Source: Parcubacteria group bacterium
GTDB taxonomy: Bacteria; Patescibacteriota; Minisyncoccia; Phycocordibacterales; Phycocordibacteraceae
Assembly (NCBI GenBank): GCA_028286545.1
Contig: JAQBRJ010000006.1
Span: 1-62,652 of the forward strand
Direction: 5' to 3'
DNA length: 62,652 nucleotides
Made by a program: the position numbers and the translations under genes. Positions 13,605 through 57,840 of this stretch are shown here, piece by piece. Position 1 is the stretch's first letter, and the number at the start of each line of letters is the position of its first letter. Below the pieces are notes generated by a model. The model was not told the DNA's origin, did no database searches, and worked only from the letters and a program-made list of their open reading frames with translations.

Positions 13605-13643
13605 AGTGCCTGAAGTTCGGAGTGGGTGGAGTATGATATTCAT

Positions 13644-15392: not shown

Positions 15393-15438
15393 ACAGCCTC
15401 TCCGCGGGTCAGTGATATACTGACACTAAGAGCTCCGT

Positions 15439-18083: not shown

Positions 18084-18090
18084 ACTTTAT

Positions 18091-19881
18091 ATGGACTACA
18101 CACTAAACACAGGCGAGCATACGGGAAAAGACAAAGACGGCAACAAAGATGGCGAAAGTTCTCTTGGACTTGCGTGGGCAAGCCTTGGACCCCTTCTAAA
18201 GGCTGAGAAACTCAATATTTCTATTGCCCTTGTCGCAGTGCTCATCAGTTCTGCAGCAAACCTTCTCTCTCCGGTCATTATCGCGCGCGTTATCGACACG
18301 GCGCTTGCAACGCATAACTTTGGTCTTGTGCTGCGATACAGCGCGCTGCTGCTCGTGGTGTACCTCATTGGTTTAGTCGCACAGTATATTCAGACTATTC
18401 GCATGGGTACGGTAGGTCGCGGTGTGCTCTTTTCACTTCGTAATGAATTGTTCACGAAACTCTCGAGCTTGCCGATTGCATTCTTCAATCAGAACAAGGC
18501 TGGCGATCTTATCTCGCGCGTCAACAATGACACCGACAAACTCAACCAATTCTTCTCGCAAGCACTAATGCAGTTCTTTGGGAACTTCTTTATTATTGTG
18601 GGTGCTGGAGTATTGCTTGTCGTACTTCATGTGCGCCTTGGTTTGGCAGCGCTCCTACCGGCGCTCGGCATCCTCATTATTACGCAGCTCTCCGGCGCTT
18701 GGGTGAAGCGAAAGAGTCGCGCAGGCCTGCAGAGTTTGGGCTCAATGTCCGGTGAAATCCAAGAGAGTCTTGCAAACTTCAAAGTCATTGTTGCATTCAA
18801 TCGCCTCGATTACTTCCGTGAGAAGTTCAGGGAAGCAAATGAAATTAACTACAAAGCATCGGTCGGTGCAGGCATTGCATCCAACATCTTCACACCAATC
18901 TATACCTTTGCCTCAAACATTGCCCAACTCATTGTGCTTGGCTACGGTATTGTACTCATTTCGCATGGGCAGCTCACCATCGGTCTTTTGGTCGGGTATT
19001 TGCTTTACGTAACTAACTTCTATAACCCGCTTCGTCAGCTCGCGAGTGTATGGTCGAGCTTGCAGCTCGCGCTTGCATCGCTCGATCGTATTGGTGAAGT
19101 ACTTGAACTTGAATCAAACCTTCATGCACTTCCCGCGGAGCAGGCAAAGACCATTACCACGACGGGGTTGCTTACCTTTGAAGACGTTTCGTTCGCGTAT
19201 CCAAATGGCAAACAGGTATTGGGTGATGTAAACCTCACCCTTGAAGCAGGGAAGACGTACGCACTCGTTGGGCCAACAGGGGGAGGCAAAACCACGACCG
19301 CATCGCTCATGGCACGTTTGTACGACCCTACAAAAGGTACCGTATACCTCGAAGGTCGTGACATCCGCACGTATACCGATACCGAGCGCGCGCAAAAGAT
19401 TGGCTTCATCCTTCAAGAACCATTTCTCTTTAGTGGTACCGTGCGTGACAATATTGTCTATGGAAATACCGAGCTCATGGCGCTTACGGAAGTTGAACTC
19501 CTGCGTCGTTTGTCGGCAGCACACTTCGATAGACTCATGGAGCGGTTTACCGATGGACTCGAGACAGTAACGAGTGCATCTGGAGATACGTTGTCGCTGG
19601 GACAGAAGCAGCTTGTTGCGTTCATGCGCGCGGTACTCCGCGCGCCAGACCTGCTCATTCTCGACGAAGCTACGGCAAACATCGACACTGTTACCGAACA
19701 ACTCCTTGAAGACATTCTCGAACAGCTTCCAAAGACCACGACAAAAGTTATCATCGCTCACCGCCTTAATACCATTTCTTCAGCCGACGATATCTTCTTT
19801 ATCAATGGTGGTCATATCACAGAAGCCGGCTCAATGGACCATGCGGTAGAAATGCTCATGCATGGCAAGCGTAGTAGCTAG
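18091..19881 (+). CDS. ABC exporter, fused permease/ATPase subunit (heterodimer partner 2)
   Basis: NBD motifs GPTGGGKT, LSLGQKQL and LILDEATA. I place the start at ATG 18091 (MDYTLNT), just after the upstream stop, rather than at 18043, which overlaps the preceding gene. Confidence 0.88.
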   Translation: MDYTLNTGEHTGKDKDGNKDGESSLGLAWASLGPLLKAEKLNISIALVAVLISSAANLLSPVIIARVIDTALATHNFGLVLRYSALLLVVYLIGLVAQYIQTIRMGTVGRGVLFSLRNELFTKLSSLPIAFFNQNKAGDLISRVNNDTDKLNQFFSQALMQFFGNFFIIVGAGVLLVVLHVRLGLAALLPALGILIITQLSGAWVKRKSRAGLQSLGSMSGEIQESLANFKVIVAFNRLDYFREKFREANEINYKASVGAGIASNIFTPIYTFASNIAQLIVLGYGIVLISHGQLTIGLLVGYLLYVTNFYNPLRQLASVWSSLQLALASLDRIGEVLELESNLHALPAEQAKTITTTGLLTFEDVSFAYPNGKQVLGDVNLTLEAGKTYALVGPTGGGKTTTASLMARLYDPTKGTVYLEGRDIRTYTDTERAQKIGFILQEPFLFSGTVRDNIVYGNTELMALTEVELLRRLSAAHFDRLMERFTDGLETVTSASGDTLSLGQKQLVAFMRAVLRAPDLLILDEATANIDTVTEQLLEDILEQLPKTTTKVIIAHRLNTISSADDIFFINGGHITEAGSMDHAVEMLMHGKRSS

Positions 19882-27904: not shown

Positions 27905-29161
27905 ATGGCTAGCGCACGTCGGGGTACAGGGCTTTTCTTAAAGTTCACACCGTTCTGGGTTTTTCTCATCCTCTTCAAATTTGCGGGTGCTCTACACTAC
28001 TCTTTGATGTCTCCCCTAGGAGAACGTCTTCTGCCTTTATGGGCTGTTGGTTTTCTCATGGGAGGTGCATCGCTCATACAATTATTGCTCGACGTGCCTG
28101 CGGGTCGTCTCCTCGATCGCTTTGGCTATCGAAAACTACTTACTCTCACGACACTTATTTTCCTGGTAGGAGCACTGTGCCTGTTCTTTAAATTCACTGT
28201 CGTAACATACCTGACGAGTATGGCACTTAGTATATTTGGCTGGTTATTCTTCGGTCCTGGTATTAATGCCTATCTTCTCTCAAGCGCACCAAAGGAGAGT
28301 GCTGGGCGATTTATGTCGTTGCGTGATGTATTTGGTTCTGTGGGGGTTGTTCTTTCAAGCGCAGTGTTGCCGTTTGTTCTTTTGCTTTCACCGACTCATA
28401 TGGGCCTCGTATTGTCGGCATCATTTGTGGCAGCAATCATTGCTATCGTGGTATCGCCGCGAGATCACGTATCGGTACATGTAGAACAAAAGCTTCCAAC
28501 GCAACACTACTATATTCGTCGCGAACTTCACACGTCGCTCGGAATGATTCGAAAGCTCAATCCTGCAAGCACAACCTTGCTTCTCCTAAACACTGCGAGC
28601 GGCATTATTTATGGCGTTATCTGGTTCGTCGTACCACTCGTACTTGCACACCAGGCAAATGATTTCATGCTTGGTATTGGTCTCGGCATATTCGACTTCG
28701 CGATAGTAGTGCTGGGATTCTTGCTCGGGGCGCTCGCTGACCGTCTTGAAAAGAAGAGGCTCGTGTTCTTTGGTCTCCTCATTTTCTCGCTCTTTGGTCT
28801 TCTCCTTGGCTCAGGCTTTGGATTGCTATTCATTCTCTTCGGATTTTTGGCTACGTCAGGGGACGAAATGGCGAGCATATCGCTGTGGGCATGGCTCCAC
28901 TCGCTTGATAGGGAGCATGCGCATGACGGAGCGGTGTCGGGTATTATCAATCTCTTTGAGGATCTCGGTTGGATGATAGGTCCCGTTGCTGCGGGACTCT
29001 TGTATGGCTTAGTCGGACCTTCATGGACCGTCGCGATTGGCGCTGCACCTATATTAGTTATTTGGGTACTCTATTGGCTTGTGTTCCAAAAAGACCATAT
29101 GCCCAGCATAGAGTCGCAACTTCTCCCGGCAAAGCCGCATAAGAGAAGACACAAGATGTAA
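27905..29161 (+). CDS. MFS transporter
   Basis: 418 aa with about 12 predicted TM helices and the loop 2-3 motif DVPAGRLLDRFGYRK. Confidence 0.8.
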   Translation: MASARRGTGLFLKFTPFWVFLILFKFAGALHYSLMSPLGERLLPLWAVGFLMGGASLIQLLLDVPAGRLLDRFGYRKLLTLTTLIFLVGALCLFFKFTVVTYLTSMALSIFGWLFFGPGINAYLLSSAPKESAGRFMSLRDVFGSVGVVLSSAVLPFVLLLSPTHMGLVLSASFVAAIIAIVVSPRDHVSVHVEQKLPTQHYYIRRELHTSLGMIRKLNPASTTLLLLNTASGIIYGVIWFVVPLVLAHQANDFMLGIGLGIFDFAIVVLGFLLGALADRLEKKRLVFFGLLIFSLFGLLLGSGFGLLFILFGFLATSGDEMASISLWAWLHSLDREHAHDGAVSGIINLFEDLGWMIGPVAAGLLYGLVGPSWTVAIGAAPILVIWVLYWLVFQKDHMPSIESQLLPAKPHKRRHKM

Positions 29162-37248: not shown

Positions 37249-38730
37249 ATGAAAGAATTCCCTGAAATATTTTCCATACTAGACACCGAAACGACGGGAA
37301 TGCGCCCGCCGTATTCGCGCGTCATCGACATTGGTATTATTCGCGTTGAACATGGAAAGGTTGTGGAACGTTTCCAAACCCTGATCAATCCTGGTGTTTC
37401 TATTCCGTCCTACATACGACGCTTCACGAATATATCCGACGAAGACCTGATGGATGCACCGTCATTTGAAGACATTGCACTGCAGATACAGGAATTATTG
37501 AGTGGAGCAGTATTCGTGGCCCACAACGCTCCGTTTGATTATGGTTTTGTGAAGTCTGAGTTTGCCCGTATCAATATGCCATTTTCTGCTGAGACGCTGT
37601 GTAGTGTGCGATTCTCACGGGCACTTCTACCAAAAGCTCGTAGCCACAGCTTGGACGCGATTATTAGCCGGTATGGGCTTTCCGTTTCAGAACGTCATCG
37701 TGCGCTCCCGGATGCAGAAGCTGTCTGGGATTTCTTTACCCGCGTGAACGGTGAGCATGACCCACAGGACATACGAAGGGCACTGGAGGCAGCGCGCTCC
37801 GGGAGTCGCGGGAAACATGCGCCAGGATTGGTCAAAGAAACGTTCACTGACTTACCGGATTCTGCGGGTGTGTACTTCTTCTATGGGCCTGAACAAGAAC
37901 TTTTATACGTGGGAAAGAGCAAGCACGTGCGAACACGTGCACGTTCGCATTTTAATCAAAGCGCCCAAAACAAAAAACGACATCTTCAAGAAGGAACATC
38001 GAGTGTGCAGTCTATACGTACGTCCGGAGAACTGTCCGCACTCATTCTCGAAGCAGCCCTCATAAAGTCAGAGTCACCGATCTACAACCGTGCGTTGCGT
38101 AAACGCAAGACGCTCGTTATTGCGCAAGCTCAGACTGCAGACGATGGATATATAACGATTCTTCTCACGCGAGCAAGTGGTATGCCTGATGCGGCCAATG
38201 CGCTCGGAATATTTAGAACAACAACACAAGCAAAACTAACACTCCGTGAACTTGCAAAAGAATATAGACTTTGCCCAAAACTCATGGGCCTCGAGGCGGG
38301 TGGCGGAGCGTGTTTTGCGTACCAACTAGGGCAGTGCAATGGTGCCTGCATTGGTAAAGAAGATTCGGCGACGTATAACGAACGATTACAAGAAGCATTC
38401 AGTAAACGTCGTTTTAAGACATGGCCGTATAAAGGAACGGTTATGATCGACGAAAAAGAAGATGCAGAAAGCGGCACTGTGTTCTTTATCGATAATTGGA
38501 TTGTTCTCGGTGCCTTTCGGTATAGTGGAGATGAATACGAACCGCTGAGCGAGTCAGTGGGAGTAGACGCAAGCTTTGATTACGATACCTATAAGATTCT
38601 CGTACGATTCATGCTTAATCCCAAAAATCGTAGAGCAGTACGCGTACTTACTAAAAACGAATACACCGCGGCATATGCGCGGTGTACAGGTTCATATGAG
38701 ACTGATGTCTCGTACGAAGAAACGTTCTAA
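37249..38730 (+). CDS. DnaQ-like 3'-5' exonuclease fused to a GIY-YIG (UvrC/Cho-like) nuclease domain
   Basis: 493 aa. ILDTETTG (ExoI), VAHNAPFDYGF (ExoII) and HRALPDAE (ExoIII), followed by GVYFFYG...LLYVGKSKHVRTRARSHF...IYN (GIY-YIG). Confidence 0.8.
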   Translation: MKEFPEIFSILDTETTGMRPPYSRVIDIGIIRVEHGKVVERFQTLINPGVSIPSYIRRFTNISDEDLMDAPSFEDIALQIQELLSGAVFVAHNAPFDYGFVKSEFARINMPFSAETLCSVRFSRALLPKARSHSLDAIISRYGLSVSERHRALPDAEAVWDFFTRVNGEHDPQDIRRALEAARSGSRGKHAPGLVKETFTDLPDSAGVYFFYGPEQELLYVGKSKHVRTRARSHFNQSAQNKKRHLQEGTSSVQSIRTSGELSALILEAALIKSESPIYNRALRKRKTLVIAQAQTADDGYITILLTRASGMPDAANALGIFRTTTQAKLTLRELAKEYRLCPKLMGLEAGGGACFAYQLGQCNGACIGKEDSATYNERLQEAFSKRRFKTWPYKGTVMIDEKEDAESGTVFFIDNWIVLGAFRYSGDEYEPLSESVGVDASFDYDTYKILVRFMLNPKNRRAVRVLTKNEYTAAYARCTGSYETDVSYEETF

Positions 38731-41700
38731 GAGATATCTTCGGGTTTTGCTGGCGCGTGACTTGCATACTGCTTACGTATGCGGCTTCCTGGCCAACGAT
38801 AGTACAGCATCGGGATAAGCACGAGGGTGAGCAAGAGTGACCATGCAAGACCGAACATGATTGCGAAGGCAAGTGGTCCCCAGAATGCGCTCGCAAGGGT
38901 GAGCGGAATCATACCGATCACGGTTACAACCGTCGTAAGAAGGATAGGGCGAAGACGAGTCGATGCCGCTTCTACCACCACTTCCTCGAGAGAGAAGTCG
39001 GTATGCTCACGATGGATGCGAGCAATCGAGTCCATCAGAATGATGGCGTGGTTAATAATCACACCGGCCAGGGCTATGACACCGAGCATAGACGGAAGCG
39101 AGAGTGGTTGGCCTGCGATGGTAAGTCCTGCAAACACACCGACGAGGGAGAGTGGAATGATTGAGAGCAAATAGAATGACTGGCGGAATGAGTTAAACTC
39201 AAGCACGAGAATCGAGAGCATAAGTGCCGCACCTGCAATAAGGGCGATGAAGAGTTGGGTGAAGGAATCCGAAACGTCTGCTGCTGCGCCCCCAACTTTC
39301 ATCGTCACGCCTTTACCGAGCATGTCTGACGTGAACTTCTTTTGGAACGTGTTGCTAATGTCGATAGCGTTTGCATTTTTTGCAACGTCCGCCGTGACTG
39401 TGGTCATGCGATTGCCAGCTTCATGCGTGATGGATGTCTGCGCCGGAGCGTAGGTGATAGTAGCGATGCTCGAGAGGGGTACAGGCCCTTGCTTACCAGG
39501 CACCGTAAGCGCACGCACCGCATCAATTGAGACGGTTGTTGTTTGGCTTGGATCCTTATAGTTAGGATTGAGGTCAAGCTTTGTGCGTACTTCAATGTCG
39601 TCTTTGCCGGTACGAATAGAGGTAGCTTTCGTACTGAAGAGGGCCGTACGGAGGGTATCGGCTACGGTAAGGGGAGAAACGCCGAGCGCCGCTGCCTTTG
39701 CGCTATCAAGCGATACAACGAATTCAGCGCTTGAGTTCTTTGTATCAGTATTTACCGTCACGACTCCTGGAATGTCGCTAAGGAGATGTGCGGCATTGTC
39801 TGCTGAGGTAGCGAGCGCACCAAGATCTTCACCCGTGAAAGTGAGGGTGACCGGGGCCGCCGCAGGCGGCCCACCCGCAGGCTCGCCAACCGTAATAGTT
39901 GCCGAGGTAACTGATGCAAGCTGCTTACGAAGTTCAATGACAAAGTCTGCGCTTGATTGCTTGTGACCTTCTGGGAGATTCACCGTAATGTTTCCGACGT
40001 TGCCACCTCCACCAGGGCCACCACCAAATCCGCTTCCTGCGAATGATGAACCGGCACCCGTCTCACTTACGAAGGACGATACATGCGGATTCGCATACAA
40101 TACCTCTTCTACTTCGCGCAAAGAAAGATCAGTGTTCCCAATCACGGTACCCTGTGGTTTTTCAATCTGCACATACACAAAGTCAGAATCTGCACCTGGG
40201 AAGAAGATTGATTTCAAGAGACCGGTTGCAGGAAGAGCAAGCGAAAGGATAAAGAGTCCAATCATTGCTGCCAGAAAGCGATTCTGATTCTTCTTATTGG
40301 CGAGGAAACGATGCAAGAAACTCTGATACCAGTCCTTTGCGGCGCGGTTGTAGCGCTCCTGACGAGAGTTATCAATTGCGTGCGTTGGATGCACGAAGTA
40401 AATAGCAAGCAACGGAACAATGCCGAGGGCTACGAAGATACTCGCAAGAAGCACGAATATAACCGTAAATGGAATACTTGCGAGGAATTTACCAACAATT
40501 CCTGAAAGGAAGAAGAGCGGTACGAATACGGCGATAGTGGTGAAGGTACCTGCAACGAGTGGCCATGCGTACTCTCGAATTGCTGCAACGGCAGCTTCGT
40601 CTTTATCACCATACTTAAGAAGGCGCGTATGGAATGCCTCAACCACCACAATGCCTGAGTCCACCAAGATACCTATGGCGAGGATGAGTGAGAAGAGGGA
40701 AACGTTGTTGAGGGAATTGCCGGTGGCAAGCATGCCAATGAAGGCAATGAGGAACGAGAGCGGAATACTTGCTGCAGCAACAAGTGACTCACGAAGGCCG
40801 AGCGTAAAGTAGAGCACAATCATAACAAGTATGACTGTTTCGATGCCCGCACGCGTAAGCTCAGTGAGACTTTTACCCACTTCCTTTCCTCCGTCGTATG
40901 ACGTCACCGTATTGGTACCTGCGAGAATACCGGTTTGAAGCTCAGCAAGTTTTGCCTGTACCGCCTGACTGACCTGTGCGATGTTGCCACCACGACTCTT
41001 GAAAATAGTGAGAGTGAGTGACGGCTCAGCGGGAGAACCTTTTACCGAAACGCGAGAATACGTTGAAGGGTCTTGGAGTCCATCAACGACCTCGGCAACA
41101 TCACCGACGCGTACTGATGCACCGGTGTTTGTTGGAATAACAACATTAGCAACTTCATCGGTTGTGGTAACGGCTGATTCAAAACGCACTGCGTACTGCA
41201 CGCCATCGATGGTGATCGCTCCAGCAGGGGAGGCAACACCGGCATTGCGGATAGCCGTTGTAATATCTGAAAGCGAGAGACCGTATTGCTGAAGACTTGC
41301 TTGGTGTGCAATGACTTGCACCTGGCGAGCACGCACACCGGAGACAGAAACTTTCGATACGCCCGGTACGCGTTTCACTTCGTCACTCACTTCCTGACTG
41401 AGTGCGGTAAGCTCACCTGCGGCAAGATTTCCTGAAATAGAAACTTCAAGTATTGGTTGATCGGAGAAGTTAACGTCTGACACCGTTGGCGCAAGTGCTT
41501 CCGTTGGCAAATCAGGACGTACTTTATCTACAGCATCCTTAAGAAGCTGAATAGACTTATCAATGTTTGCACTTGAATCAAATTCAACAGAGACGCTTGA
41601 GATACCTGCGCCAGACGTGGATGTGACTTTCGACACGTGCTCAACACCCAGTACGCCGCTTTCAATCTTGTCTGTCACGAGGCGTTCAACGTCTGGCGCC

Positions 41701-41867
41701 GATGCACCAGGAAGAGCGGTGACTACGATACCCAGCGGAATAGTAATGTCCGGAGTTGATTCCTTTGGAATAGCAACGATTGCATACAAACCACTGATAG
41801 CAAGAACAACGACGATAAAGATCGTAAAGCTGCGCTTAGTGAGGAAGAAGCTCCAGAATTTTGTCAT
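38727..41867 (-). CDS. RND-family efflux transporter permease (AcrB/HAE-like)
   Basis: 1,046 aa. Twelve-TM two-fold repeat architecture with two large loops. Motifs include SLNNVSLFSLILAIGILVDSGIVVVE and GVIINHAIILMDSI. Confidence 0.9.
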   Translation of the reverse strand: MTKFWSFFLTKRSFTIFIVVVLAISGLYAIVAIPKESTPDITIPLGIVVTALPGASAPDVERLVTDKIESGVLGVEHVSKVTSTSGAGISSVSVEFDSSANIDKSIQLLKDAVDKVRPDLPTEALAPTVSDVNFSDQPILEVSISGNLAAGELTALSQEVSDEVKRVPGVSKVSVSGVRARQVQVIAHQASLQQYGLSLSDITTAIRNAGVASPAGAITIDGVQYAVRFESAVTTTDEVANVVIPTNTGASVRVGDVAEVVDGLQDPSTYSRVSVKGSPAEPSLTLTIFKSRGGNIAQVSQAVQAKLAELQTGILAGTNTVTSYDGGKEVGKSLTELTRAGIETVILVMIVLYFTLGLRESLVAAASIPLSFLIAFIGMLATGNSLNNVSLFSLILAIGILVDSGIVVVEAFHTRLLKYGDKDEAAVAAIREYAWPLVAGTFTTIAVFVPLFFLSGIVGKFLASIPFTVIFVLLASIFVALGIVPLLAIYFVHPTHAIDNSRQERYNRAAKDWYQSFLHRFLANKKNQNRFLAAMIGLFILSLALPATGLLKSIFFPGADSDFVYVQIEKPQGTVIGNTDLSLREVEEVLYANPHVSSFVSETGAGSSFAGSGFGGGPGGGGNVGNITVNLPEGHKQSSADFVIELRKQLASVTSATITVGEPAGGPPAAAPVTLTFTGEDLGALATSADNAAHLLSDIPGVVTVNTDTKNSSAEFVVSLDSAKAAALGVSPLTVADTLRTALFSTKATSIRTGKDDIEVRTKLDLNPNYKDPSQTTTVSIDAVRALTVPGKQGPVPLSSIATITYAPAQTSITHEAGNRMTTVTADVAKNANAIDISNTFQKKFTSDMLGKGVTMKVGGAAADVSDSFTQLFIALIAGAALMLSILVLEFNSFRQSFYLLSIIPLSLVGVFAGLTIAGQPLSLPSMLGVIALAGVIINHAIILMDSIARIHREHTDFSLEEVVVEAASTRLRPILLTTVVTVIGMIPLTLASAFWGPLAFAIMFGLAWSLLLTLVLIPMLYYRWPGSRIRKQYASHAPAKPEDIS

Positions 41868-41886
41868 GGGTATAGGTTCTACTCAA

Positions 41887-43512
41887 TTATATGGCTGGAG
41901 TACTCGTCGATACGAGCACTTTCTCTCCTTCGGAAAGTCCGCGCACGTCCGTCACGATCATAAGTGTTGGATCGAGTGGTGTGGTTACCTGAATGCGATC
42001 ACCAACAACGTCTCCAATAGTTACGTTGTGTGCAACGAGGCGACCATCAGCATCGACCGTAAAGACAGCACGCGTAGTGGTCATGAGCTTAAGGGCAGTG
42101 AGTGGAAGAAGCTGCACGGTCGGTGTTGTCGCTGTGCTGGTAGCGGTAGTCGTTACCTTTGTTTGATTCTCAGGCTGGGGGAATGAGATACGAACTGATT
42201 GACCGTTCACAAGATCAGACGCATTTTGCACCGCAACATGTACTTCTATCTGCTTAGTTACAGGATCGAGGGCTGCATTTACTGACGTAACGGTTCCCGT
42301 GTGACCCCCTTCGATCGTTACCGTCATGCCTGGTGTGAGTTCATCACGATTCTGCTCAGGAATGTAGGCAACGATTTCGAGTGCTCCGTTTTGAGCAACG
42401 GTTGCTACGTGGGTGAAGGCACCAACGTAATCACCAACGTGTAGCGAAAGGAAGTTGAGCGTACCTCCGATAGTTGCGCGAATGCGGGTCTTTTCGAGAT
42501 TTGCCTGAGCGCCACGAAGTGCACCAAGCGCTTGCTTAACAGAAGCATCAGAGACAGCGAGCTGTGTGCCCGTGTTACTTGAAGTTGCACCAACCTGCGC
42601 TGCAGTCTTCTTTGCATTGTATGCGTCGCGTGCTGCAGAGAGTGCAGAGAGCTGACCGTCCACAATGCCGCGTGCTCGAGCGAGTGCAGCGAGTTGAGCA
42701 GCTGTTGCGTCTGAACCTTGCTGATTTGCCGCTACCGAAAGTTGAGATAAGAACGCGGAGACTGCTTGAGTATCAGTTGTTGCCTGAGCAAGGAGGGTTG
42801 TAGGATCAGCCGAATCAGCTGTTGCTACTTTAGCGCCCCATGCATCCATACGATCCGTAAGCGCTGCGCGCTTACGCGAAATATCCTGACTTGTTCCTGC
42901 GCTTATCAAAAGCTGAGGACCAATTGGCGTAGCGTTTCCGAAGAAGGTACCGACATCATTGGTGAGAGTTGAATCAACTGCCGTGAATGCTGAACGATAG
43001 GTTGCACGTGCAGCAGTCTGCGCTTCTGCAAATGACGTCTGCGTGTTGCCGCTCTGAAGGCTGGTGATGTTGCGTGATGCTACCGCAGCATCATAGGCGC
43101 CTTGTGCCTGAAGTACGGTTGCTGCTTCGCTCGCATTATCAAGCTCTGCAATTATTGAACCTGCAGCCACCCTGGAACCTTCTTTTGCGTACACTCCTTT
43201 AACCGTTCCTCCTGCCTGTGCTGAAAGCTGTGCTTCACTAATAGACTGCACGGTACCAAGTATCGAGACACCATCGCCATTTCCTGAGAGCGACGAAACG
43301 CTTGAGAGGGTAACGGTGCGTTCTTGTGGTGACGCATCTGCTGCGCCTCCTGAGCTCGCAAGTGCAATACCTCCAATGATCACCGCGAGTATCGCAGCTA
43401 CGATTAGTGCCTGTGCCCAAAGCTTGAGTCCACGGAATTGTTTCCATGTACGGATGGAGCGAGCTTTAAGGACTGAAGCGGCAGAACGGAGGCGGTTGAG
43501 GAGGGACTTCAT
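41887..43512 (-). CDS. Efflux periplasmic adaptor (membrane fusion protein) with an unusually long Ala/Thr/Gln-rich alpha-hairpin
   Basis: 541 aa. N-terminal TM anchor, lipoyl-like GGTVKGVYAKEGSRVAAGSIIAELD, a long coiled-coil region and beta-barrel segments (IRATIGGTLNFLSLHVGDYV). Confidence 0.8.
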   Translation of the reverse strand: MKSLLNRLRSAASVLKARSIRTWKQFRGLKLWAQALIVAAILAVIIGGIALASSGGAADASPQERTVTLSSVSSLSGNGDGVSILGTVQSISEAQLSAQAGGTVKGVYAKEGSRVAAGSIIAELDNASEAATVLQAQGAYDAAVASRNITSLQSGNTQTSFAEAQTAARATYRSAFTAVDSTLTNDVGTFFGNATPIGPQLLISAGTSQDISRKRAALTDRMDAWGAKVATADSADPTTLLAQATTDTQAVSAFLSQLSVAANQQGSDATAAQLAALARARGIVDGQLSALSAARDAYNAKKTAAQVGATSSNTGTQLAVSDASVKQALGALRGAQANLEKTRIRATIGGTLNFLSLHVGDYVGAFTHVATVAQNGALEIVAYIPEQNRDELTPGMTVTIEGGHTGTVTSVNAALDPVTKQIEVHVAVQNASDLVNGQSVRISFPQPENQTKVTTTATSTATTPTVQLLPLTALKLMTTTRAVFTVDADGRLVAHNVTIGDVVGDRIQVTTPLDPTLMIVTDVRGLSEGEKVLVSTSTPAI

Positions 43513-50461: not shown

Positions 50462-50511
50462 TTGACCTTCACCCGGACTTCATATATACTTAGCTATGCT
50501 AACTATTAGCC
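50462..50511 (+). promoter_or_regulatory. Promoter and candidate MarR operator of the efflux operon
   Basis: TTGACC (50462-50467), a 17-nt spacer, then TATACT (50485-50490). Overlapping inverted repeats TTAGC-N3-GCTAA-N4-TTAGC follow directly, just before ATG 50513. Confidence 0.45.
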
Positions 50512-50512
50512 T

Positions 50513-50941
50513 ATGACTAAAAAACCACCTTCAGACATGGGAGAGCTATCTTCACTGATGTTCGAAATGGGCCGCAAGCTTAAGCATCAGATAAGTGTTG
50601 ATGGCATGGGTCCTTCTACGTACCTGCACCTTGAGACCCTTCGTCACATACAGGAAGTAGGACAGCCCGATATGCAGGCCGTCGCTGACTATTTGCGTAT
50701 CAAGTCGCCCTCAGCAACGCGCCTTATACATGCGCTCGTATCTGATGGTTTGCTTAAGCGCATCCCTGACGCTAACGATCGTCGTCGTATTGAGCTCGCG
50801 CTTACTCCTGCGGGAGTGCGCATGCTTGAAAAGGCAACGCGTAAGCGCGCTGAAGCGTTTGCGCGCGTGATCGAACCATTGTCATCTGCTGATCGTAAAG
50901 AGTTTGCTCGATTGCTCACTATTATTACTCGTCGTTCGTAA
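50513..50941 (+). CDS. MarR family transcriptional regulator
   Basis: 142 aa. Winged-helix region (VADYLRIKSPSATRLIHALVSDGLLKRIPDANDRRRIELALTPAG). Confidence 0.88.
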   Translation: MTKKPPSDMGELSSLMFEMGRKLKHQISVDGMGPSTYLHLETLRHIQEVGQPDMQAVADYLRIKSPSATRLIHALVSDGLLKRIPDANDRRRIELALTPAGVRMLEKATRKRAEAFARVIEPLSSADRKEFARLLTIITRRS

Positions 50942-50976
50942 GTGCTCGTACTTCGTTATCTTTTAAATATTCATTC

Positions 50977-52509
50977 ATGTCTACAACTCTCAAAGAATTG
51001 CTTGCCCATAAGGCTGTTGTTATCGCACTCGGCTTGGTCGGTGTTATTGCTGTTGCAAGCGCCGCGTACTTCGTCATTGCAACCCACGTGCCGGGCTTTT
51101 CATATGTATCGGTCACAACGGCTCCAATACATCAGGACATTGTTGCGACGGGTAGCGTAGAGCCTGTGCAGAATCCTGACCTCTCGTTTACTTCAGGAGG
51201 TCGCGTAACGTACGTGAATGCAAAAGTGGGGCAGCAGGTAGCTGCAGGCACCGTACTCGCAAGCCTTGATACCGGCGTACTTGGCGCGCAGCTCCAGGCT
51301 GCTCAAGCAGCACTCAATGCTGTTGCTGCGCCAACACGTGCTGTCGACCTTGCTGGCTCAGAAAATGCTGTAGCAATTGCGCAGCAGAATCTTACGAACA
51401 GCTTCACTATGTTCCCAACAACGCTTCTTTCAACGGTAACGAAGGCTACGGCTGCTGTGAGTCAGACCGACCTTATCTTCATGTATCCGTCGCTCTCGTC
51501 ACCACAGGTGAGCTCGTCATATGTAAGCGACTATTCAGCGCGCACCTCTATCGATGCCGAGCGTGGCGCCCTCAACAGTGAACTTGCTGCGTGGGAAAAT
51601 GAGACAGCGTCTATAAACGGAAGCTCACTTACGCCAGCGCAGGTAACAACGTACACGCAAGAAGCCGTTACACACCTTTCACATGTACGCGCCTACCTGA
51701 ACGATCTTGCTGCCGCTCTTCGCGCTACGCCGGCAACACAAGCAACAACGCAGACTCAGATAAACGCAGCCTTGAGTTCTGCAACAAACGCACGCGATAC
51801 TGTCGATAGCCTTACGCTGGCAATCCAAACAACACAGCAGTCATTTGCGACAAATCAGCTTGCTATCACGTCTGCACAGGATGCGCTCAATCAAAAGCAG
51901 GCTGGTGCCACCCCGCAGGCAATTGCGGTGCAGCAGGCACAGGTATCCGCGGTGGCAGCACAGATTCGTCAGTCACAAGTAATCGCACCGTTCTCTGGTG
52001 TTGTTGGTGCAGTAGCAGTGAAGTCAGGCGATGTCGTTGAATCAAACACTGTTGCTGTTTCACTCATTCCGCAGGGAAGCTATCAGGTCGAAGCACAGCT
52101 TTCAGAACTGGAGATGTCTAAGCTCGCGACAGGTGATGCTGTTGATGTAACGCTCGATGCATACGGAGCTTCACGTCCATTCACCGGTACCGTTGCTTCA
52201 ATTGCAACTGCACCCGTAGACGTAAACGGTACTCCTTCGTACAAGGTTGTGGTGGTGCTCGATACCAAAGACCCATCAGTGGCTGTTGGTATGCACGCAA
52301 ACCTCACCATTCACGCAGGCAGCAAGGACGCAGCACTCGTGATTCCTCGCAGCGCAGTCATCATGAATGGCAACCAAGCATTCGTTATTAAAAAGGAAGG
52401 TAAAGGTTCAACTCGTGTGCCCGTTACGCTCGGTCTTGAAAGTACCGCCATGGTAGAAGTTGTCTCAGGACTTTCTGCAGGCGACAGCGTTGCACGCATT
52501 GGCGGTTAA
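50977..52509 (+). CDS. Efflux adaptor (membrane fusion protein), long Ala/Gln/Thr-rich form, paralog of 41887..43512
   Basis: 510 aa. TM anchor, GGRVTYVNAKVGQQVAAGTVLASLD, long coiled coil, IAPFSGVVGAVAVKSGDVV and a C-terminal beta domain. Confidence 0.8.
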   Translation: MSTTLKELLAHKAVVIALGLVGVIAVASAAYFVIATHVPGFSYVSVTTAPIHQDIVATGSVEPVQNPDLSFTSGGRVTYVNAKVGQQVAAGTVLASLDTGVLGAQLQAAQAALNAVAAPTRAVDLAGSENAVAIAQQNLTNSFTMFPTTLLSTVTKATAAVSQTDLIFMYPSLSSPQVSSSYVSDYSARTSIDAERGALNSELAAWENETASINGSSLTPAQVTTYTQEAVTHLSHVRAYLNDLAAALRATPATQATTQTQINAALSSATNARDTVDSLTLAIQTTQQSFATNQLAITSAQDALNQKQAGATPQAIAVQQAQVSAVAAQIRQSQVIAPFSGVVGAVAVKSGDVVESNTVAVSLIPQGSYQVEAQLSELEMSKLATGDAVDVTLDAYGASRPFTGTVASIATAPVDVNGTPSYKVVVVLDTKDPSVAVGMHANLTIHAGSKDAALVIPRSAVIMNGNQAFVIKKEGKGSTRVPVTLGLESTAMVEVVSGLSAGDSVARIGG

Positions 52510-52534
52510 ACCTTACTTACTCAATTACTTACAT

Positions 52535-53209
52535 ATGGACGAAGAAATTCAGAACTCAGAATCAGACGTAGCGGTCGAAGCAGAAAAGGAATCGCCTAAG
52601 TCGCGCTTGCCGCTCATGGTTGCTGCGGGTCTCGTGCTCATCGTTGGCGGTGCCTTTGGCACTATCGCGTACCTCGGCGTCGCAAGTGCTCGCGTAAGCA
52701 TTGATACCGCACAAATTCAGGCGCCAGAAATTGCACTCGCACCGACAACACCCGGTGTATTGAAGCAGATGTATGTTCAAGCAGGGGACGTGATTCCTGC
52801 GAACACCGTTGTTGCACAAGTTGGTACCGAACTCATTAAGTCCACTTCGGCTGGTCTCGTCATCAGCACGAGTGACCAAGTGGGAGCTATTGTATCGGCA
52901 GCATCACCGGTAGCGACGATGATTGATCCTTCTGCGCTACGCGTTGTGGGAAAGATTGAAGAAGATAAGGGACTGTCGCGCATTGCGGTTGGCGATCGTG
53001 TGGTCTTCACTGTAGATGCGTTTGGCAGTCAGAAGTTCAATGGCGTTGTCGACGAAGTGAGTCCTACATCGCATGCTTCAGACGTTGTGTTCTCCATCTC
53101 AGACAAGCGCGAAGTGCAGAAGTTCGATGTGAAGGTTGCATACGACCAGACACAGTATCCGCAGCTCAAGAACGGCATGAGCGCACGCATCAACGTTTAT
53201 ACGAAGTAA
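52535..53209 (+). CDS. HlyD/EmrA-type short membrane fusion protein
   Basis: TM anchor, GVLKQMYVQAGDVIPANTVVAQV and VVFTVDAFGSQKFNGVVDEVSP. I place the start at ATG 52535 rather than at 52460, which overlaps the upstream gene. Confidence 0.7.
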   Translation: MDEEIQNSESDVAVEAEKESPKSRLPLMVAAGLVLIVGGAFGTIAYLGVASARVSIDTAQIQAPEIALAPTTPGVLKQMYVQAGDVIPANTVVAQVGTELIKSTSAGLVISTSDQVGAIVSAASPVATMIDPSALRVVGKIEEDKGLSRIAVGDRVVFTVDAFGSQKFNGVVDEVSPTSHASDVVFSISDKREVQKFDVKVAYDQTQYPQLKNGMSARINVYTK

Positions 53210-53213
53210 GCCT

Positions 53214-54752
53214 ATGGCGACTGCCGCGGTACAAAACACAATCAAACCAAGGCCAGCTAAAAAAGAGCGGTCAGAGAGTTCACTTAAGTGGTGGATTCTC
53301 GTTACCGTTATTATTGGCACCTTTCTCGGCAGACTCGATCAAACGATCGTTAACCTCGCACTCCCAAAGATCATCGATAGCTTTAGCATCAGTGTCTCTG
53401 CCGCGGGCTGGGTTGGTACGGCATACATTCTAGCCAATGCTATATTCGTGCCTATTTGGGGCAAGCTTGGTGACACCATTGGACGCAAGAAGGTCTACGT
53501 CACGGGCTTTGTAATTTTCATCATTGGTTCGATACTTGCTGGTCTCGCGTGGAATCTTCCATCACTCATCGTCTTCCGTATTATCCAGGCAATCGCTGGT
53601 TCCGCAGACTACCCAACTGCCATGGCAATCCTCGCGGTGACATTCCCAGACCCGAAAGAGCGCGGACAAGCACTCGGTATATGGTCGAGTGTGTTCGGCG
53701 CGAGTGCCGTGCTTGGCCCGCTCATTGGCGGTCCGCTTATTGATAACTTCGGATGGCGCTCTGTTTTCTTAATCAACTTGCCGGTCGGTATCATCGGCCT
53801 CTTCATGGCGCTTACCTTTATTACTGAATCGAAGCTACCTGAAAGAGTTCGCAAGTTCGACTGGTGGGGCGCTACCACACTTGGTATTACGCTTGGTGCA
53901 CTGGTGCTCGTACTCGACAAGGGCGCTGACTGGGGATGGTTCTCGGTTTACTCACTTATTTCATATTTGATAGTCGTGGTGATGGGAATCCTGTTCTACT
54001 TCATCGAGAAGTATCACTCAGAACCAATCGTCGACTTGAAGTTCTTTAGCAATCCAGTGTTTATGAATACGCTCGGTAATAACTTCGTGGTGTTCATGGC
54101 CATGATGGGTTCAATCTTCCTCGTACCGATCTTTGCGCAAACATTCCTTGGCTACACAGCAACTCAGTCGGGATACTTATTCATACCGATGGCACTCGGT
54201 CTTATGATTGCGGCACCATTCGGCGCATCACTCGTCGGGAAGGTAAGTGCCGGTACCGTGATTGGTTCTTCTACGCTCGTTGCCGCTATTGGTATCGGCT
54301 TATTTTCATTCATTGATGCGCGCTCGAGTGCTATCGACCTCATGCTCCCGCTCTTTATCATGGCGGCTGGTATGGGCTTTGGTATGGCGCAGCGTACGAG
54401 TGCGATCGCCGGTGCGGTGCCTGCCTCTGAAATCGGCGTAGCGTCCTCCGTGCTTGCGCTTGCCCGCAACATCGCCGGCGCCTTTGGTATCGCGCTCTTT
54501 GGTACGCTTCTTAATTGGGCAATCCAGCGTAACGTGCTCCACATAAATTCCATGAGCGAAGTGTACGTAAAGACACCACAGATCATGGCAGAGTACACCG
54601 GCCTGATTATCCTCAAGGCCCAGATCGATGCCTACGCGCTTATCTACGAACTTGCTGCAGGTCTTCTCCTCATCGGCGCACTCCTCGCGTTCTTTATACG
54701 TGTGCCTGACGTGCAGATGTCGGAAGAGGATCGCGCGATGGCGGAGGTGTAA
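53214..54752 (+). CDS. MFS drug:H+ antiporter, DHA2 (EmrB/QacA, 14-TMS) family
   Basis: 512 aa. LDQTIVNLALPKI, GKLGDTIGRKKVY and about 14 TM helices. Confidence 0.88.
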   Translation: MATAAVQNTIKPRPAKKERSESSLKWWILVTVIIGTFLGRLDQTIVNLALPKIIDSFSISVSAAGWVGTAYILANAIFVPIWGKLGDTIGRKKVYVTGFVIFIIGSILAGLAWNLPSLIVFRIIQAIAGSADYPTAMAILAVTFPDPKERGQALGIWSSVFGASAVLGPLIGGPLIDNFGWRSVFLINLPVGIIGLFMALTFITESKLPERVRKFDWWGATTLGITLGALVLVLDKGADWGWFSVYSLISYLIVVVMGILFYFIEKYHSEPIVDLKFFSNPVFMNTLGNNFVVFMAMMGSIFLVPIFAQTFLGYTATQSGYLFIPMALGLMIAAPFGASLVGKVSAGTVIGSSTLVAAIGIGLFSFIDARSSAIDLMLPLFIMAAGMGFGMAQRTSAIAGAVPASEIGVASSVLALARNIAGAFGIALFGTLLNWAIQRNVLHINSMSEVYVKTPQIMAEYTGLIILKAQIDAYALIYELAAGLLLIGALLAFFIRVPDVQMSEEDRAMAEV

Positions 54753-54772
54753 GTCTTGAATAACGAAATCCT

Positions 54773-55503
54773 TTGGGAGTCATACTTTGGTATACTCTAC
54801 CCATGGGAAACGAATCTCCATTTATTATCGAAGATTTTCAAGGCTTCAAAGTTGTTCGAGATGATCTATACGAAGGCGGTACAAAACGACGTGCTTTTAG
54901 CCGTTTGATCGATTCAATTACGGAAGATGAATTGGTGTATGCCTGCGACTACTATGGCGCAGCCGCCTATGCTATTGCTCTTACCGCTCAAGAGGCAGGG
55001 AAGAAAGTCATGCTCTTTTATTTATCTCCGAAGCAAGAAACTGCTCTATTTAATAAAGCGGTAAGTCTTCCAAACGTTACGTATGAAATCGTGGAAGAAG
55101 CAAAGACTCAAATAGAAGCGAGTATACGTGCAAAGGAATATGCAAAAGAACATAACGCAAATTCCTACCCATAGGATTAGACTTCCCAGAGTTTGGAGAA
55201 GAGCTAGAGAAGGTAGTTAAGTCTGCAAGTATAAAAGCTCCAGAGATATGGGTTATGGGCGGATCTGGGACTCTAGGTAGAGCGTTACAAAGAGCGTATC
55301 CAAATATCCCCGTAAATATTGTGAGCGTTGGAACGGCAAACTTTAACGGTGGAGATAATAAAGTGTACGAAGCTCCAGAAGCATTGGATGAGGAGGCAGA
55401 GATCAAGCCGCCCTACAATTCTTCTTCTCACTACGACGCAAAGACCTGGAGGTTTGTCCTAGAGCACGCCAAGCCTGGCTCTTATATTTGGAACGTAGCC
55501 TAG
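54773..55503 (+). pseudogene. Fold-type-II PLP-enzyme-like gene (ACC deaminase / D-cysteine desulfhydrase family-like) split by a frameshift
   Basis: ORF 54773..55174 (VRDDLYEGGTKRRAF...) stops at TAG 55172-55174. The reading continues in another frame, open from 55156 through the track ORF 55255..55503 (..IGLDFPEFGEE...VMGGSGTLGRALQ..). A 1-nt shift within 55156-55172 would fuse them. Confidence 0.5.
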
Positions 55504-55517
55504 ACCTCTTAAAAAAT

Positions 55518-56954
55518 ATGAACACTTCTGAATTCACATCACCAGTACTAAAAGACTTTGACCCAGAAGGGTATCACTTCTTCGGTCTGTGGAAGCAGAA
55601 TCTATTTTCAGCATGTTTTTGGGCAGGCTGTTATAGCAAAGAGGTTGCGGATAGGCTGGGAATTGAGACAGAAGAATCTGGAGTTGCGGTACTTACAGAA
55701 GGTAATTTCTTTATCAAGGATTCAGAACTCGCAAACATAAGGAAGCAAATTAGAGAGAAGATTGAAACCAAAGATGAGGCTTTCTTCAAAAATATGGTTA
55801 AGGTCTCCGATGATCATTTTAAAGAAGCTGTTGCGTTTACTGAAATATTCAAAAATAAAGAGCTAACACCAGAAACTTTTGAAGAGTATCTTGTTCTGGG
55901 AAAGAAAATTACTTTTCTTTGGATGCTGGGAGCAGAGCAGTTTTCTGAACATGCTCAAGAAAAATTAACTGAAGTTGCTCTAGCTGAGTCATTTCCCGTA
56001 GAACGTATACCTGAGATCATTCCAAAATTTGATACTCCACTCAATCAGCAGCATAGAGAAATGATTGAGCTCAAAAAAGAGGTCGGCAGTCTTTCACTCG
56101 AAGAAATAAAAAAGAATAAAGAACTCTACTCAAAAATCGAAGATCATACCAAACGTTTTGGATGGATTGAGATCGCAAACCTCGTAGGTGATCCTCTTAC
56201 GGTTGAAAGATTGTACGAGCAAATTATTCATGCAAAAGATGAACATGCTCAAGAAGCCAAGAACCTGCCTACGATTTCAGAGAACCTCGCATTTCATGCA
56301 AGATGTGTGAGTTATTGTGGCTACCTGCGACAAGCAGGAGCTGAATATTTCTTTATGATGTCAGAAAAGGCCCAACCCTATTTAATGGCTCTTGGAGAAA
56401 AATTTGGACTTTCATATCCTGAATTTTTACTACAAATTGATGTTGAGATAATCGAAACGTTGAAAGGAAATATCAGTGCAGATATTTTGAAAGCTAATGT
56501 TAAACGCAGAGAAGCAATGGACATAATCCTGTTTGCCGGGAAAGGAGAGGAGGTTTTCTTTACCGAGGAACCTGAAGATATTGAGAAGCTGAAAAAGCTA
56601 ATGCTTCCTCAAGCTGATCTCACGAGTAAGGAAATAAAAGGTCAGATTGGTAACAAGGGAACATATACTGGTCCAGCAAAGATAATCATGAACACTCATG
56701 ACTTTGCCAAAATGCAGACTGGCGATGTGCTTGTCTCAACCATGACAACACCGGATTTTGTGGTGCTTATGCATAAGGCAGGAGCCATCGTAACTGACAT
56801 CGGAGGCATGCTCTGCCACGCCGCGATTGTCTCAAGAGAAATAAATAAGCCTTGTGTCATAGGTACGAAATTTGCCACACAGATTCTTAAGGACGGTGAT
56901 CTCATAGAGGTAGATGCAGATAAGGGAGTAGTCACTATTCTCGAAAGACCATAA
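55518..56954 (+). CDS. Free-standing helical-domain plus swivel phosphohistidine-domain protein (no ATP-grasp, no PEP-binding domain)
   Basis: About 478 aa from ATG 55518. C-terminal IKGQIGNKGTYTGPAKII...MTTPDFVVLMHKAGAIVTDIGGMLCHAAIVSREINKPCVIGTKFATQILKDGDLIEVDADKGVVTIL, with the His codon at 56817-56819. Confidence 0.88.
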   Translation: MNTSEFTSPVLKDFDPEGYHFFGLWKQNLFSACFWAGCYSKEVADRLGIETEESGVAVLTEGNFFIKDSELANIRKQIREKIETKDEAFFKNMVKVSDDHFKEAVAFTEIFKNKELTPETFEEYLVLGKKITFLWMLGAEQFSEHAQEKLTEVALAESFPVERIPEIIPKFDTPLNQQHREMIELKKEVGSLSLEEIKKNKELYSKIEDHTKRFGWIEIANLVGDPLTVERLYEQIIHAKDEHAQEAKNLPTISENLAFHARCVSYCGYLRQAGAEYFFMMSEKAQPYLMALGEKFGLSYPEFLLQIDVEIIETLKGNISADILKANVKRREAMDIILFAGKGEEVFFTEEPEDIEKLKKLMLPQADLTSKEIKGQIGNKGTYTGPAKIIMNTHDFAKMQTGDVLVSTMTTPDFVVLMHKAGAIVTDIGGMLCHAAIVSREINKPCVIGTKFATQILKDGDLIEVDADKGVVTILERP

Positions 56955-57028
56955 AACAATAACTGAGGTGTAAAACTCTCCCGCAATGGTTCTTGCCAGC
57001 GGCATGATCCTAGACCATTATTAGGAAT

Positions 57029-57673
57029 ATGGGAATGGAAGGAAATCCAAATGAAAGGTCTAGCTCTAAGATAAGCAGAAGAGCTTTTTTAGGTGGAGCG
57101 GTCGCAATCGGAGCACTAGCCGCATTGGGTTCTAAAGTTCGTGTTGAGAAAGAACCGATTGACCACACACAAGATCACGATCTTGATTTGTTCAATAAAG
57201 CGTACGATTTACCACCAGAATATAAAAAGAACATTACGGATTGGATGCACGATGATCTCTTTAAAGATCCTCGAGTAATCACACAGCTGAATGACTTTAT
57301 TGATTCGATAGAAAAAGGAAAGGAGCCTGTGTACCAAGGGTCTGTTAGATTTACGCGCAACGATTCCTTGCCACAGATTTTCAAGGAAGGTAATGACGAG
57401 TTTCGATTCTCAATCAATACTAATTTCAAATTTACTGATGGCGTAAGTAATGGCGAGAAACTAAATGAAGGAGAAGTCGTGATTGATTGTGGAGTATCAA
57501 TGAACGGTTCTGATTCAGAAGAGCTTGGCTCTTACAGAGATCACGGCGTTATCATAGGCAGAAGTGGTGGAATTTTTGGAATGTCCTTCATCTATAACGT
57601 ACATACTGGCTTAATGAGAAAGTTTCCATCAGAGGGCTTCGCTGAGGGTTTGTCCAGAATATTCACGCCATAG
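57029..57673 (+). CDS. Hypothetical Tat-signal secreted protein
   Basis: 214 aa. Twin-arginine signal SRRAFLGGAVAIGALAALGS. No family recognised. Confidence 0.6.
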   Translation: MGMEGNPNERSSSKISRRAFLGGAVAIGALAALGSKVRVEKEPIDHTQDHDLDLFNKAYDLPPEYKKNITDWMHDDLFKDPRVITQLNDFIDSIEKGKEPVYQGSVRFTRNDSLPQIFKEGNDEFRFSINTNFKFTDGVSNGEKLNEGEVVIDCGVSMNGSDSEELGSYRDHGVIIGRSGGIFGMSFIYNVHTGLMRKFPSEGFAEGLSRIFTP

Positions 57674-57704
57674 ACTAACCTGCGTTTATTTCAGATTGAC
57701 CGAA

Positions 57705-57733
57705 AGGGGAGCAAATAGTACAATATGACCAAT
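57705..57733 (+). promoter_or_regulatory. Candidate promoter upstream of typA
   Basis: TTGACC (57705-57710), a 17-nt spacer, then TACAAT (57728-57733). It is followed by small hairpins GCCU-UUCG-AGGC and CCGCC-UGCG-GGCGG and a U-rich run, about 100 nt before ATG 57841. Confidence 0.4.
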
Positions 57734-57840
57734 GCCTTTCGAGGCTCCGCCTGCGGGCGGCTTTGCTTTTTGCATAGCAGTTTGGCCTCATTTCAGCGTT
57801 ATTTAACCTTATTATCTCGCCTTTTAATTAATCTTTAGTC

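Follow-up and report, generated by a model that had tools for sequence, protein, structure and literature searches.

We analysed a single 62,652-bp contig (JAQBRJ010000006.1, in the following called the window) of a metagenome-assembled genome (MAG) from a bacterium of the Parcubacteria group. It encodes a 478-residue protein, referred to here as the orphan, which combines a predicted substrate-binding domain with a C-terminal phosphohistidine swivel domain. The orphan is probably the acceptor (H-type) subunit of a split small-molecule dikinase related to rifampin phosphotransferase (RPH). Its most likely phosphate donor in this genome is the N-terminal ATP-grasp domain of a 3111-residue giant protein, which carries seven further modules, every one of them with a swivel domain at its end, and is encoded 44.5 kb away. 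Because the orphan has a swivel but neither an ATP-grasp nor a phosphoenolpyruvate (PEP)-binding domain, it should be charged in trans, so that the system would be multi-component. This had been proposed before from a sequence-only reading of the window. The proposal is now supported by fused homologues, by the gene neighbourhoods of the family (seven out of seven) and by a sequence identity of 69% between the giant ATP-grasp and the corresponding domains adjoining orphan orthologues. Coordinates of all features in the window are compiled in Table 1.

Domain architecture of the orphan

The open reading frame (ORF) of the orphan ends at position 56954 of the plus strand and could start either with TTG at 55488 or with ATG at 55518. 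The N-termini of orthologues coincide with the ATG codon (MNTSEF.. compared to VNTFEF.. and MNQF..), so that the boundaries listed in Table 1 and the length of 478 residues are correct. PF00391, the swivel domain, is the sole Pfam family on the protein (residues 400–470, E = 8e-24). PF01326 (PPDK_N, the ATP-grasp domain) was not detected by Pfam in the orphan polypeptide. Matches to NCBIfam models are confined to residues ~350–477, and all of them score far under the respective cut-offs. The initial description of a protein with one swivel and without an ATP-grasp or PEP-binding domain thus agrees with both databases.

An NCBI record identical to the orphan protein is named 'MAG: Pyruvate, water dikinase [Parcubacteria group bacterium]'. 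We regard this name as a misannotation, because ATP-grasp and TIM barrel are missing and the model scores stay below their cut-offs (104 compared to 740 bits for TIGR01418 and 114 compared to 598 bits for NF005057). Of the domains of PEP synthase and pyruvate, phosphate dikinase (PPDK) only the swivel is present.

The gene is under purifying selection. A comparison with three orthologues yielded a dN of 0.13–0.21 with saturated dS, and the closest stand-alone orthologues are 77–78% identical to the orphan.

Swivel domain and catalytic histidine

RPH-type enzymes have their catalytic histidine in a T/S-x-x-G-G-x-x-x-H motif that lies no more than ~50 residues from the C-terminus. The orphan contains the sequence TDIGGMLCH, and the predicted catalytic residue His434 is located 44 residues from the end. 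Thr426, Asp427, Gly429, Gly430, Leu432 and His434 are invariant in 59 family members. The equivalent histidine is essential in HpeH and RPH (PMC12167813).

The orphan swivel shares 54–60% sequence identity with the seven swivels of the giant protein; module 5 is the most similar, and module 7 shares 54%. In the sequence-only reading an L-C-H / SRE.NKPC variant had been described as common to the orphan and module 7 only. This holds for the leucine two positions before the catalytic histidine (His-2, GG[ML]LCH), which within the window is found solely in these two swivels, but not for the remainder: module 1 likewise contains SRE, and module 5 contains NKPC. Modules 1–6 have a threonine at the His-2 position (GG[IV]T[SC]H), whereas module 7 and the orphan have a leucine; the system therefore comprises two swivel classes. 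In PEP synthase and PPDK, regulation takes place by phosphorylation of a threonine at this position. The leucine is invariant across the orphan family, and RPH and HpeH likewise have a hydrophobic residue instead of threonine.

Modelled structure of the predicted substrate-binding domain

An AlphaFold2 model of the orphan calculated with 59 homologues reached a predicted local distance difference test score (pLDDT) of 92.6 and a predicted TM-score (pTM) of 0.90. The best hits of a Foldseek search with this model against the PDB were structures of RPH (PDB-entries 5FBU, 5FBT, 5HV1 and 5FBS) with E-values of ~1e-12. These matches span the whole orphan, i.e. the helical domain, which in the model adopts the fold of the rifampin-binding domain of RPH, and the swivel. 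The TM-scores normalised to the query (TMq) range from 0.51 to 0.58 with ~14% identity in the structural alignment. In PPDK, PEP synthase, pyruvate kinase and Enzyme I, Foldseek matched only the orphan swivel (TMq ~0.2 for PPDK, pyruvate kinase and Enzyme I). A sequence profile of the orphan family aligns to residues 634–866 of RPH and thereby extends into the rifampin-binding domain. Pfam contains no family matching residues 1–365 of the orphan, and NCBIfam gave no matches outside the linker and swivel region.

According to the model, the N-terminal part is a second-substrate-binding domain of the RPH type. A cryptic nucleotide- or PEP-binding domain in this region, which had been named as one of the observations that would speak against the sequence-only reading, is ruled out by the RPH-like fold together with the lack of Pfam and NCBIfam matches outside the swivel. 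The family alignment reveals a set of conserved aromatic residues in the N-terminal domain (Trp25, Phe30, Phe34, Trp35, Trp135 and Trp216), which do not identify the substrate. RPH binds rifampin, whereas nothing we found indicates binding of a rifamycin by the ~365-residue substrate domain of the orphan.

Comparison with known dikinases

Multi-component dikinases are already known. In PpsAB, CreHI and HpeHI a separate ATP-grasp subunit presents ATP to a second subunit that consists of a substrate-binding domain and a swivel (PMC12167813). The swivel histidine of these split enzymes is pyrophosphorylated, the γ-phosphate is released and the β-phosphate is passed on to the substrate in the acceptor's own domain (PMC12167813). 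The complex of HpeH and HpeI is only transient, and mutation of the histidine abolishes activity (PMC12167813). HpeH, CreH and PpsA resemble the orphan in their composition of an RPH-like substrate domain and a C-terminal swivel with the catalytic histidine near the C-terminus; their ATP is supplied by a separate ATP-grasp protein of ~35–40 kDa. Acceptor and ATP-grasp reside on separate polypeptides in the window as well, since the orphan has no ATP-grasp and the only one in the window belongs to the giant. The two genes are 44.5 kb apart here, in contrast to the adjacent genes of known two-component systems and of seven out of seven neighbourhoods of related genes.

Several differences should be noted. 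The orphan is shorter than HpeH (~71 kDa). The swivel-ended NCBIfam models of the PRK08296 type (~570–630 residues), to which we take PpsA, CreH and HpeH to belong, do not cover it: NF006153 and NF006149–NF006152 match residues ~358–477 only, with a best score of 98 bits compared to a cut-off of 578. PpsAB, CreHI and HpeHI employ a dedicated small ATP-grasp subunit encoded next door, whereas the candidate donor of the orphan is the N-terminus of a protein with seven acceptors of its own. The hosts differ, too, being degraders of aromatic compounds for PpsAB, CreHI and HpeHI, and Patescibacteria and DPANN archaea for orphan-type proteins. RPH, in contrast to the orphan, unites all functions in one polypeptide. 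PEP synthase (pyruvate, water dikinase) has a homologous swivel (PDB-entry 8A8E, E = 8e-21) and presumably the same phosphohistidine chemistry, but possesses an ATP-grasp and a PEP/pyruvate-binding TIM barrel, neither of which is found in the orphan.

Judged by its sequence and predicted structure, the orphan has every feature required of the acceptor of a split dikinase. Its only departure from its relatives is its displacement by 44 kb.

The giant protein and its ATP-grasp domain

Pfam assigns one PPDK_N domain and seven PF00391 domains to the giant protein. A tblastn search of the window revealed no second PPDK_N domain and no swivel besides the seven of the giant and that of the orphan, in agreement with the earlier statement that the window has no other ATP-grasp. 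Its fold matches the ATP domain of RPH (PDB-entry 5HV6) with a target-normalised TM-score (TMt) of 0.91 and the crystal structure of HpeI (PDB-entry 9GOJ) with a TMt of 0.77 at 33% sequence identity. To those ATP-grasps that are fused directly to orphan-type modules it is 61–83% identical; a second comparison with such fusions gave 64–68%.

A profile of the orphan family (A1) matches module 2 of the giant over its full length (profile positions 13–472, giant residues 792–1247, 296 bits). For module 7 the match starts only at profile position 90 (giant residues 2708–3111, 224 bits), and in the short modules it covers just the linker and the swivel. The designation of the orphan as an eighth module resembling module 7 was therefore inexact, module 2 being the closest full-length paralogue. 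The orphan and module 7 do fall into the same size class, as had been stated, but modules 1 and 2 belong to it as well (453–504 residues for modules 1, 2 and 7). A derivation of the orphan from module 7 is not supported, because the best and full-length profile match is module 2 and the identity to the swivel of module 7 is not elevated.

The catalytic histidine loops of the giant are located at residues 736–741, 1201–1206, 1540–1545, 1881–1886, 2223–2228, 2560–2565 and 3065–3070. Pfam also reported whole-protein matches of Epimerase_2 (E = 4e-12), EDR2_C and DRTGG at residues 626–755 and 1889–1950, without any single significant stretch. They overlap the linker and swivel regions of modules 1 and 4 and are probably spurious.

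Homologues and gene neighbourhoods

Homologue searches and a scan of GTDB species showed that the orphan family is limited to Patescibacteria (the candidate phyla radiation or CPR) and to archaea of the DPANN group. The 120 best homologues include 70 stand-alone proteins of 421–520 residues and 34 proteins of 761–830 residues with a PPDK_N domain in front. A phmmer search with the N-terminal domain resulted in 144 cluster representatives at E ≤ 1e-3, of which ~96 are stand-alone proteins of 420–520 residues. The stand-alone form of ~470 residues is the commonest architecture of this domain family. The fusions of ~800 residues keep the domain order of RPH, i.e. ATP-grasp, substrate domain and swivel. 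Four of them (P0030, P0034, P0036 and P0049) are 46–51% identical to the orphan over 99% of its length. Residues 2–5 of the orphan align to residues 322–331 of the fused forms, so that the orphan corresponds to a clean fission at the boundary between ATP-grasp and substrate domain. A homologue of 829 residues (P0003, 70% identity to the orphan) consists of an orphan-type module and a second helical-plus-swivel module without an ATP-grasp. Having two acceptors and no ATP-grasp, it must be charged in trans.

This distribution also bears on the idea that the orphan is an evolutionary leftover, be it a piece of an 800-residue enzyme that has lost its ATP-grasp and is decaying or without catalytic function, or a swivel-like domain with a solely regulatory role, comparable to the C-terminal domain of the Geobacillus pyruvate kinase. 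The displacement of the gene from the cluster and the frameshift in the gene immediately upstream, which demonstrates that local decay occurs, would fit such an origin, as would the match between the swivel and pyruvate kinase (PDB-entry 2E28). We nevertheless consider it extremely improbable, given the intact ORF, the close stand-alone orthologues, the low dN (0.13) at saturated dS, the invariance of the catalytic histidine and the TDxGGxLxH motif in 59 members, and the prevalence of the stand-alone form. Because of this conservation, and because no architecture is more frequent than the stand-alone one, we reject the reading as a pseudogene or remnant.

The sequence-only reading had suggested a check for co-occurrence across related genomes. 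A PPDK_N gene lies within ~5 kb of the orphan-type gene in all seven homologue neighbourhoods, usually directly upstream and in the same operon; in six of the seven it belongs to the same same-strand cluster. Each of the seven clusters contains one PPDK_N for up to nine acceptor genes. In the locus with 77% identity to the orphan (L001), a PPDK_N+swivel protein (672 residues) is followed by the orphan-type protein (476 residues) and by proteins of 477 and 353 residues. The locus with 78% identity (L007) has a PPDK_N+swivel protein (695 residues) that abuts the orphan-type protein (475 residues). At 70% identity (L003/L004) the order is a PPDK_N protein with two swivels (1305 residues), the orphan-type protein (474 residues), proteins of 470, 358 and 456 residues, a phosphatase-like protein with an RHG motif (253 residues), and proteins of 365 and 467 residues. 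A single PPDK_N-only gene (316 residues) stands amid nine separate swivel genes at 65% identity (L008). In a nanoarchaeote (L006, 49%) a PPDK_N-only gene (314 residues) overlaps the orphan-type gene (481 residues) by 4 nt, and a gene for 361 residues follows. Parcubacteria C7867-004 (L005, 41%) encodes a PPDK_N protein of 1141 residues, then proteins of 466 and 340 residues and the orphan-type protein (474 residues). Finally, the locus with 36% identity (L009) has a PPDK_N-only gene (321 residues) at a distance of 1 kb. The PPDK_N-only proteins (314–321 residues) are able to act in trans only. As a separate observation, the closest orthologue of the orphan, in L007, is followed 3 kb downstream by a pair of bAvd and reverse transcriptase genes (14627..16030) resembling a diversity-generating retroelement.

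With its orthologues in L001 and L004 the orphan shares 77% and 70% identity; for the other modules of the giant, full-length identity to anything in these two loci reaches only 30–40%. The orphan type is hence the most conserved acceptor.

Among GTDB species representatives we found 37 loci with an orphan-type N-terminal domain. A PPDK_N domain is present in 22 of them, 17 times in the same ORF and five times encoded separately on the same strand; 11 of the 15 loci without it are truncated by contig ends.

One could imagine that the orphan works without an ATP-grasp, either by exchanging phosphate between two phospho-compounds or by being charged from PEP or another phospho-protein. HpeH alone does exchange phosphate between 4-phosphoacetophenone and acetovanillone (PMC12167813), and a few distant homologues of the orphan have no PPDK_N nearby. 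We consider this very unlikely, since scans of the giant, of 20 other ORFs of the window and of the eight annotated neighbourhoods detected no PEP-utilizers_C domain, and since fusion or operon linkage with PPDK_N is tight across the family. Because of this linkage, ATP should be the normal phosphate source.

Giants with several swivels are also found in other Patescibacteria and in Woesearchaeota. The locus L046 (3959..21329) contains an ORF of 2609 residues with the ATP-grasp first and an orphan-type module last, followed by seven genes, which amounts to 12 swivels in 21 kb. Further examples are stop-to-stop ORFs of 1400–2000 residues in L023, L033, L018 and L019. As comparable giants recur elsewhere, the giant of the window is no oddity of the assembly.

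Proposed mechanism and identity of the donor

Based on RPH, PpsAB and HpeHI we propose the following mechanism by analogy, including both the chemistry and the small-molecule nature of the substrate. The separately encoded ATP-grasp domain would first bind ATP. The swivel of the orphan would then dock to this domain, and His434 would attack the β-phosphate of ATP and become pyrophosphorylated. In the next step the γ-phosphate would leave as inorganic phosphate (Pi), whereas the phosphohistidine would remain. Finally, the swivel would return to its own helical N-terminal domain and phosphorylate the substrate bound there. The net reaction would be substrate + ATP + H2O -> substrate-P + AMP + Pi. 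The giant ATP-grasp may thus serve its seven tethered modules in cis and the unlinked orphan in trans, comparable to a hub with many spokes.

As the visible part of the genome amounts to just 62.6 kb, we infer the identity of the donor. The same mechanism could operate with another PPDK_N protein encoded outside the contig. Besides the limited fraction of the genome that is visible, stand-alone PPDK_N-only genes in related systems and the position of the orphan outside the cluster, maybe in another transcription unit, are compatible with such a donor. It appears unlikely, however, because every one of the seven neighbourhoods has a single PPDK_N for its acceptor genes, and because the giant ATP-grasp is a clear orthologue of the domain adjoining the orphan's orthologues. 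Patescibacterial genomes are small, so that a second copy of PPDK_N is not expected.

Some observations weigh against a charging of the orphan by the giant ATP-grasp. The orphan gene is located 44 kb away in a different, possibly separate transcription unit, while nearly all relatives have the two side by side or as a fusion. Another PPDK_N protein elsewhere in the genome could be the real donor. The loci L030, L035, L036 and L039 could be read for at least 8 kb on each side (within a limit of ±10 kb) and contain no PPDK_N in this range; all four are distant, with 23–28% identity in the N-terminal domain. The function of the N-terminal domain family is a prediction from sequence and structure comparison. 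The giant ATP-grasp is already tethered to seven acceptors, and its reach to a free acceptor is what we propose. In addition, an AlphaFold2 chimera of giant residues 1–321 and the orphan, for which an alignment of natural fusions was used, resulted in confident domains but an overall pTM of 0.61 and a TM-score of 0.38 to RPH, so that its inter-domain arrangement was uninformative and speaks neither for nor against docking.

More tentatively, the assignment of the orphan as an acceptor charged in trans may be extended to a hub-and-spoke dikinase in Patescibacteria and DPANN archaea; we regard this wider picture as possible, though somewhat short of an even chance. One highly conserved ATP-grasp would charge 2–12 acceptors per locus, be they fused, encoded in the same operon or unlinked. 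Each acceptor would have a substrate pocket of its own, providing a panel of phosphorylations for scavenging or the inactivation of xenobiotics. A recurrent His_Phos_1 phosphatase might reset the system or act as a downstream enzyme. If this is true, the orphan, being unlinked, would provide direct evidence at the genome level of a hub acting in trans on free acceptors.

Genomic context

Table 1. Features of the window (62,652 bp) around the orphan and the giant gene.
Feature	Position	Strand	Basis
His_Phos_1 gene, head-to-head with the giant	871..1500	-	PF00300, E = 2e-8; RHG motif
Giant gene, 3111 residues, ATP-grasp and seven modules each ending in a swivel	1646..10981	+	Pfam
Giant ATP-grasp (PPDK_N), residues 1–330, proposed phosphate donor for the orphan	1646..2635	+	PF01326 at residues 17–323, E = 3e-101
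MarR	50513..50941	+	
Two membrane-fusion-protein ORFs	50977..53209	+	
Major facilitator superfamily (MFS) transporter	53214..54752	+	
Broken upstream gene, ~233 residues if one gene, frameshift near 55165–55175	54773..55174 and 55255..55503	+	
Orphan gene, predicted 478-residue stand-alone acceptor subunit (substrate-binding domain and phosphohistidine swivel)	55518..56954	+	ORF, Pfam, orthologues
N-terminal, mostly helical, predicted second-substrate-binding domain, residues 1–365	55518..56612	+	AlphaFold2 and Foldseek
C-terminal swivel (PEP-utiliser mobile) domain, residues 366–478	56613..56951	+	PF00391; PDB swivels of PEP synthase and RPH
Codon of the predicted catalytic His434, motif TDIGGMLCHAAIVSRE	56817..56819	+	Motif position, family invariance

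The arrangement around the orphan was reproduced in an independent Logan assembly. Upstream of the orphan and on the same strand, genes for MarR, two membrane fusion proteins (MFP), an MFS transporter and a broken gene follow each other with gaps of 14–35 nt. The same frameshift in the broken gene is present in the independent Logan assembly (L089), and a family search with this gene gave only a sub-threshold match to DAGK_cat. The block from MarR via the orphan to a protein with a twin-arginine translocation (TAT) signal lies on one strand with gaps of 14–74 nt (50462..57760, plus strand). It is bracketed by the best promoter-like site (50462–50490) and the best terminator-like site (57747–57760); promoter-like sites are no commoner than in shuffled sequence. 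The orphan may be co-transcribed with this efflux operon. A MarR/MFP/MFS context was not found beside homologues elsewhere and is specific to this genome.

Further exporters are encoded between the giant and the orphan (16338..19881, 27905..29161 and 38727..43512), namely two half-transporters with ABC_membrane and ABC_tran domains, an MFS transporter and an AcrB-type resistance-nodulation-division (RND) pump with HlyD. This exporter density is unusual for a Patescibacterium with a small genome. As circumstantial evidence, the context is compatible with an RPH-like role in the handling of xenobiotics.

Genes of the His_Phos_1 family are found beside or inside swivel arrays in L001 (13980–14681), L004 (4694–5350 and 15290–16051), L005 (11976–12590) and L008 (11538–13053). 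L046 contains, at 13379–14155, a homologue of the phosphatase-like gene from the L004 cluster. These positions were taken from neighbourhoods annotated with Pfam; a BLAST census of His_Phos_1 neighbours was set aside, because the sequences are too divergent and the two Pfam-annotated copies of L008 were missed. SixA-type members of the histidine phosphatase superfamily dephosphorylate phosphohistidine. It is possible that the His_Phos_1 protein is an accessory phosphatase that removes phosphate from products or from phosphohistidine. A second candidate phosphatase is a haloacid dehalogenase (HAD)-family hydrolase, whose gene (10993..11583, plus strand) starts 12 nt past the stop codon of the giant.

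Implications

A literature search yielded no account of one ATP-grasp shared by many acceptor modules in CPR or DPANN genomes, nor of an acceptor unlinked from its array, although such an absence is no proof of novelty. It is the sharing of one ATP-grasp by many acceptor modules, as many as 12, in Patescibacteria and DPANN archaea that seems not to have been described so far. The proteins in these groups that are routinely annotated as 'PEP synthase' or 'pyruvate, water dikinase' are more likely small-molecule dikinases similar to RPH and HpeHI that share one ATP-grasp among many acceptor modules. When the metabolism of these minimal symbionts is reconstructed, such labels lead to wrong calls of gluconeogenesis. 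Among the acceptors, the orphan-type module shows the highest conservation and most often stands alone, which makes it the obvious first target for biochemistry. If the transfer from one ATP-grasp to many acceptors holds true, the system would lend itself as a modular basis for the design of kinases with new specificities. For the organism itself, it would be an economical way to phosphorylate many compounds with a tiny genome, for example in nutrient trapping or antibiotic inactivation.

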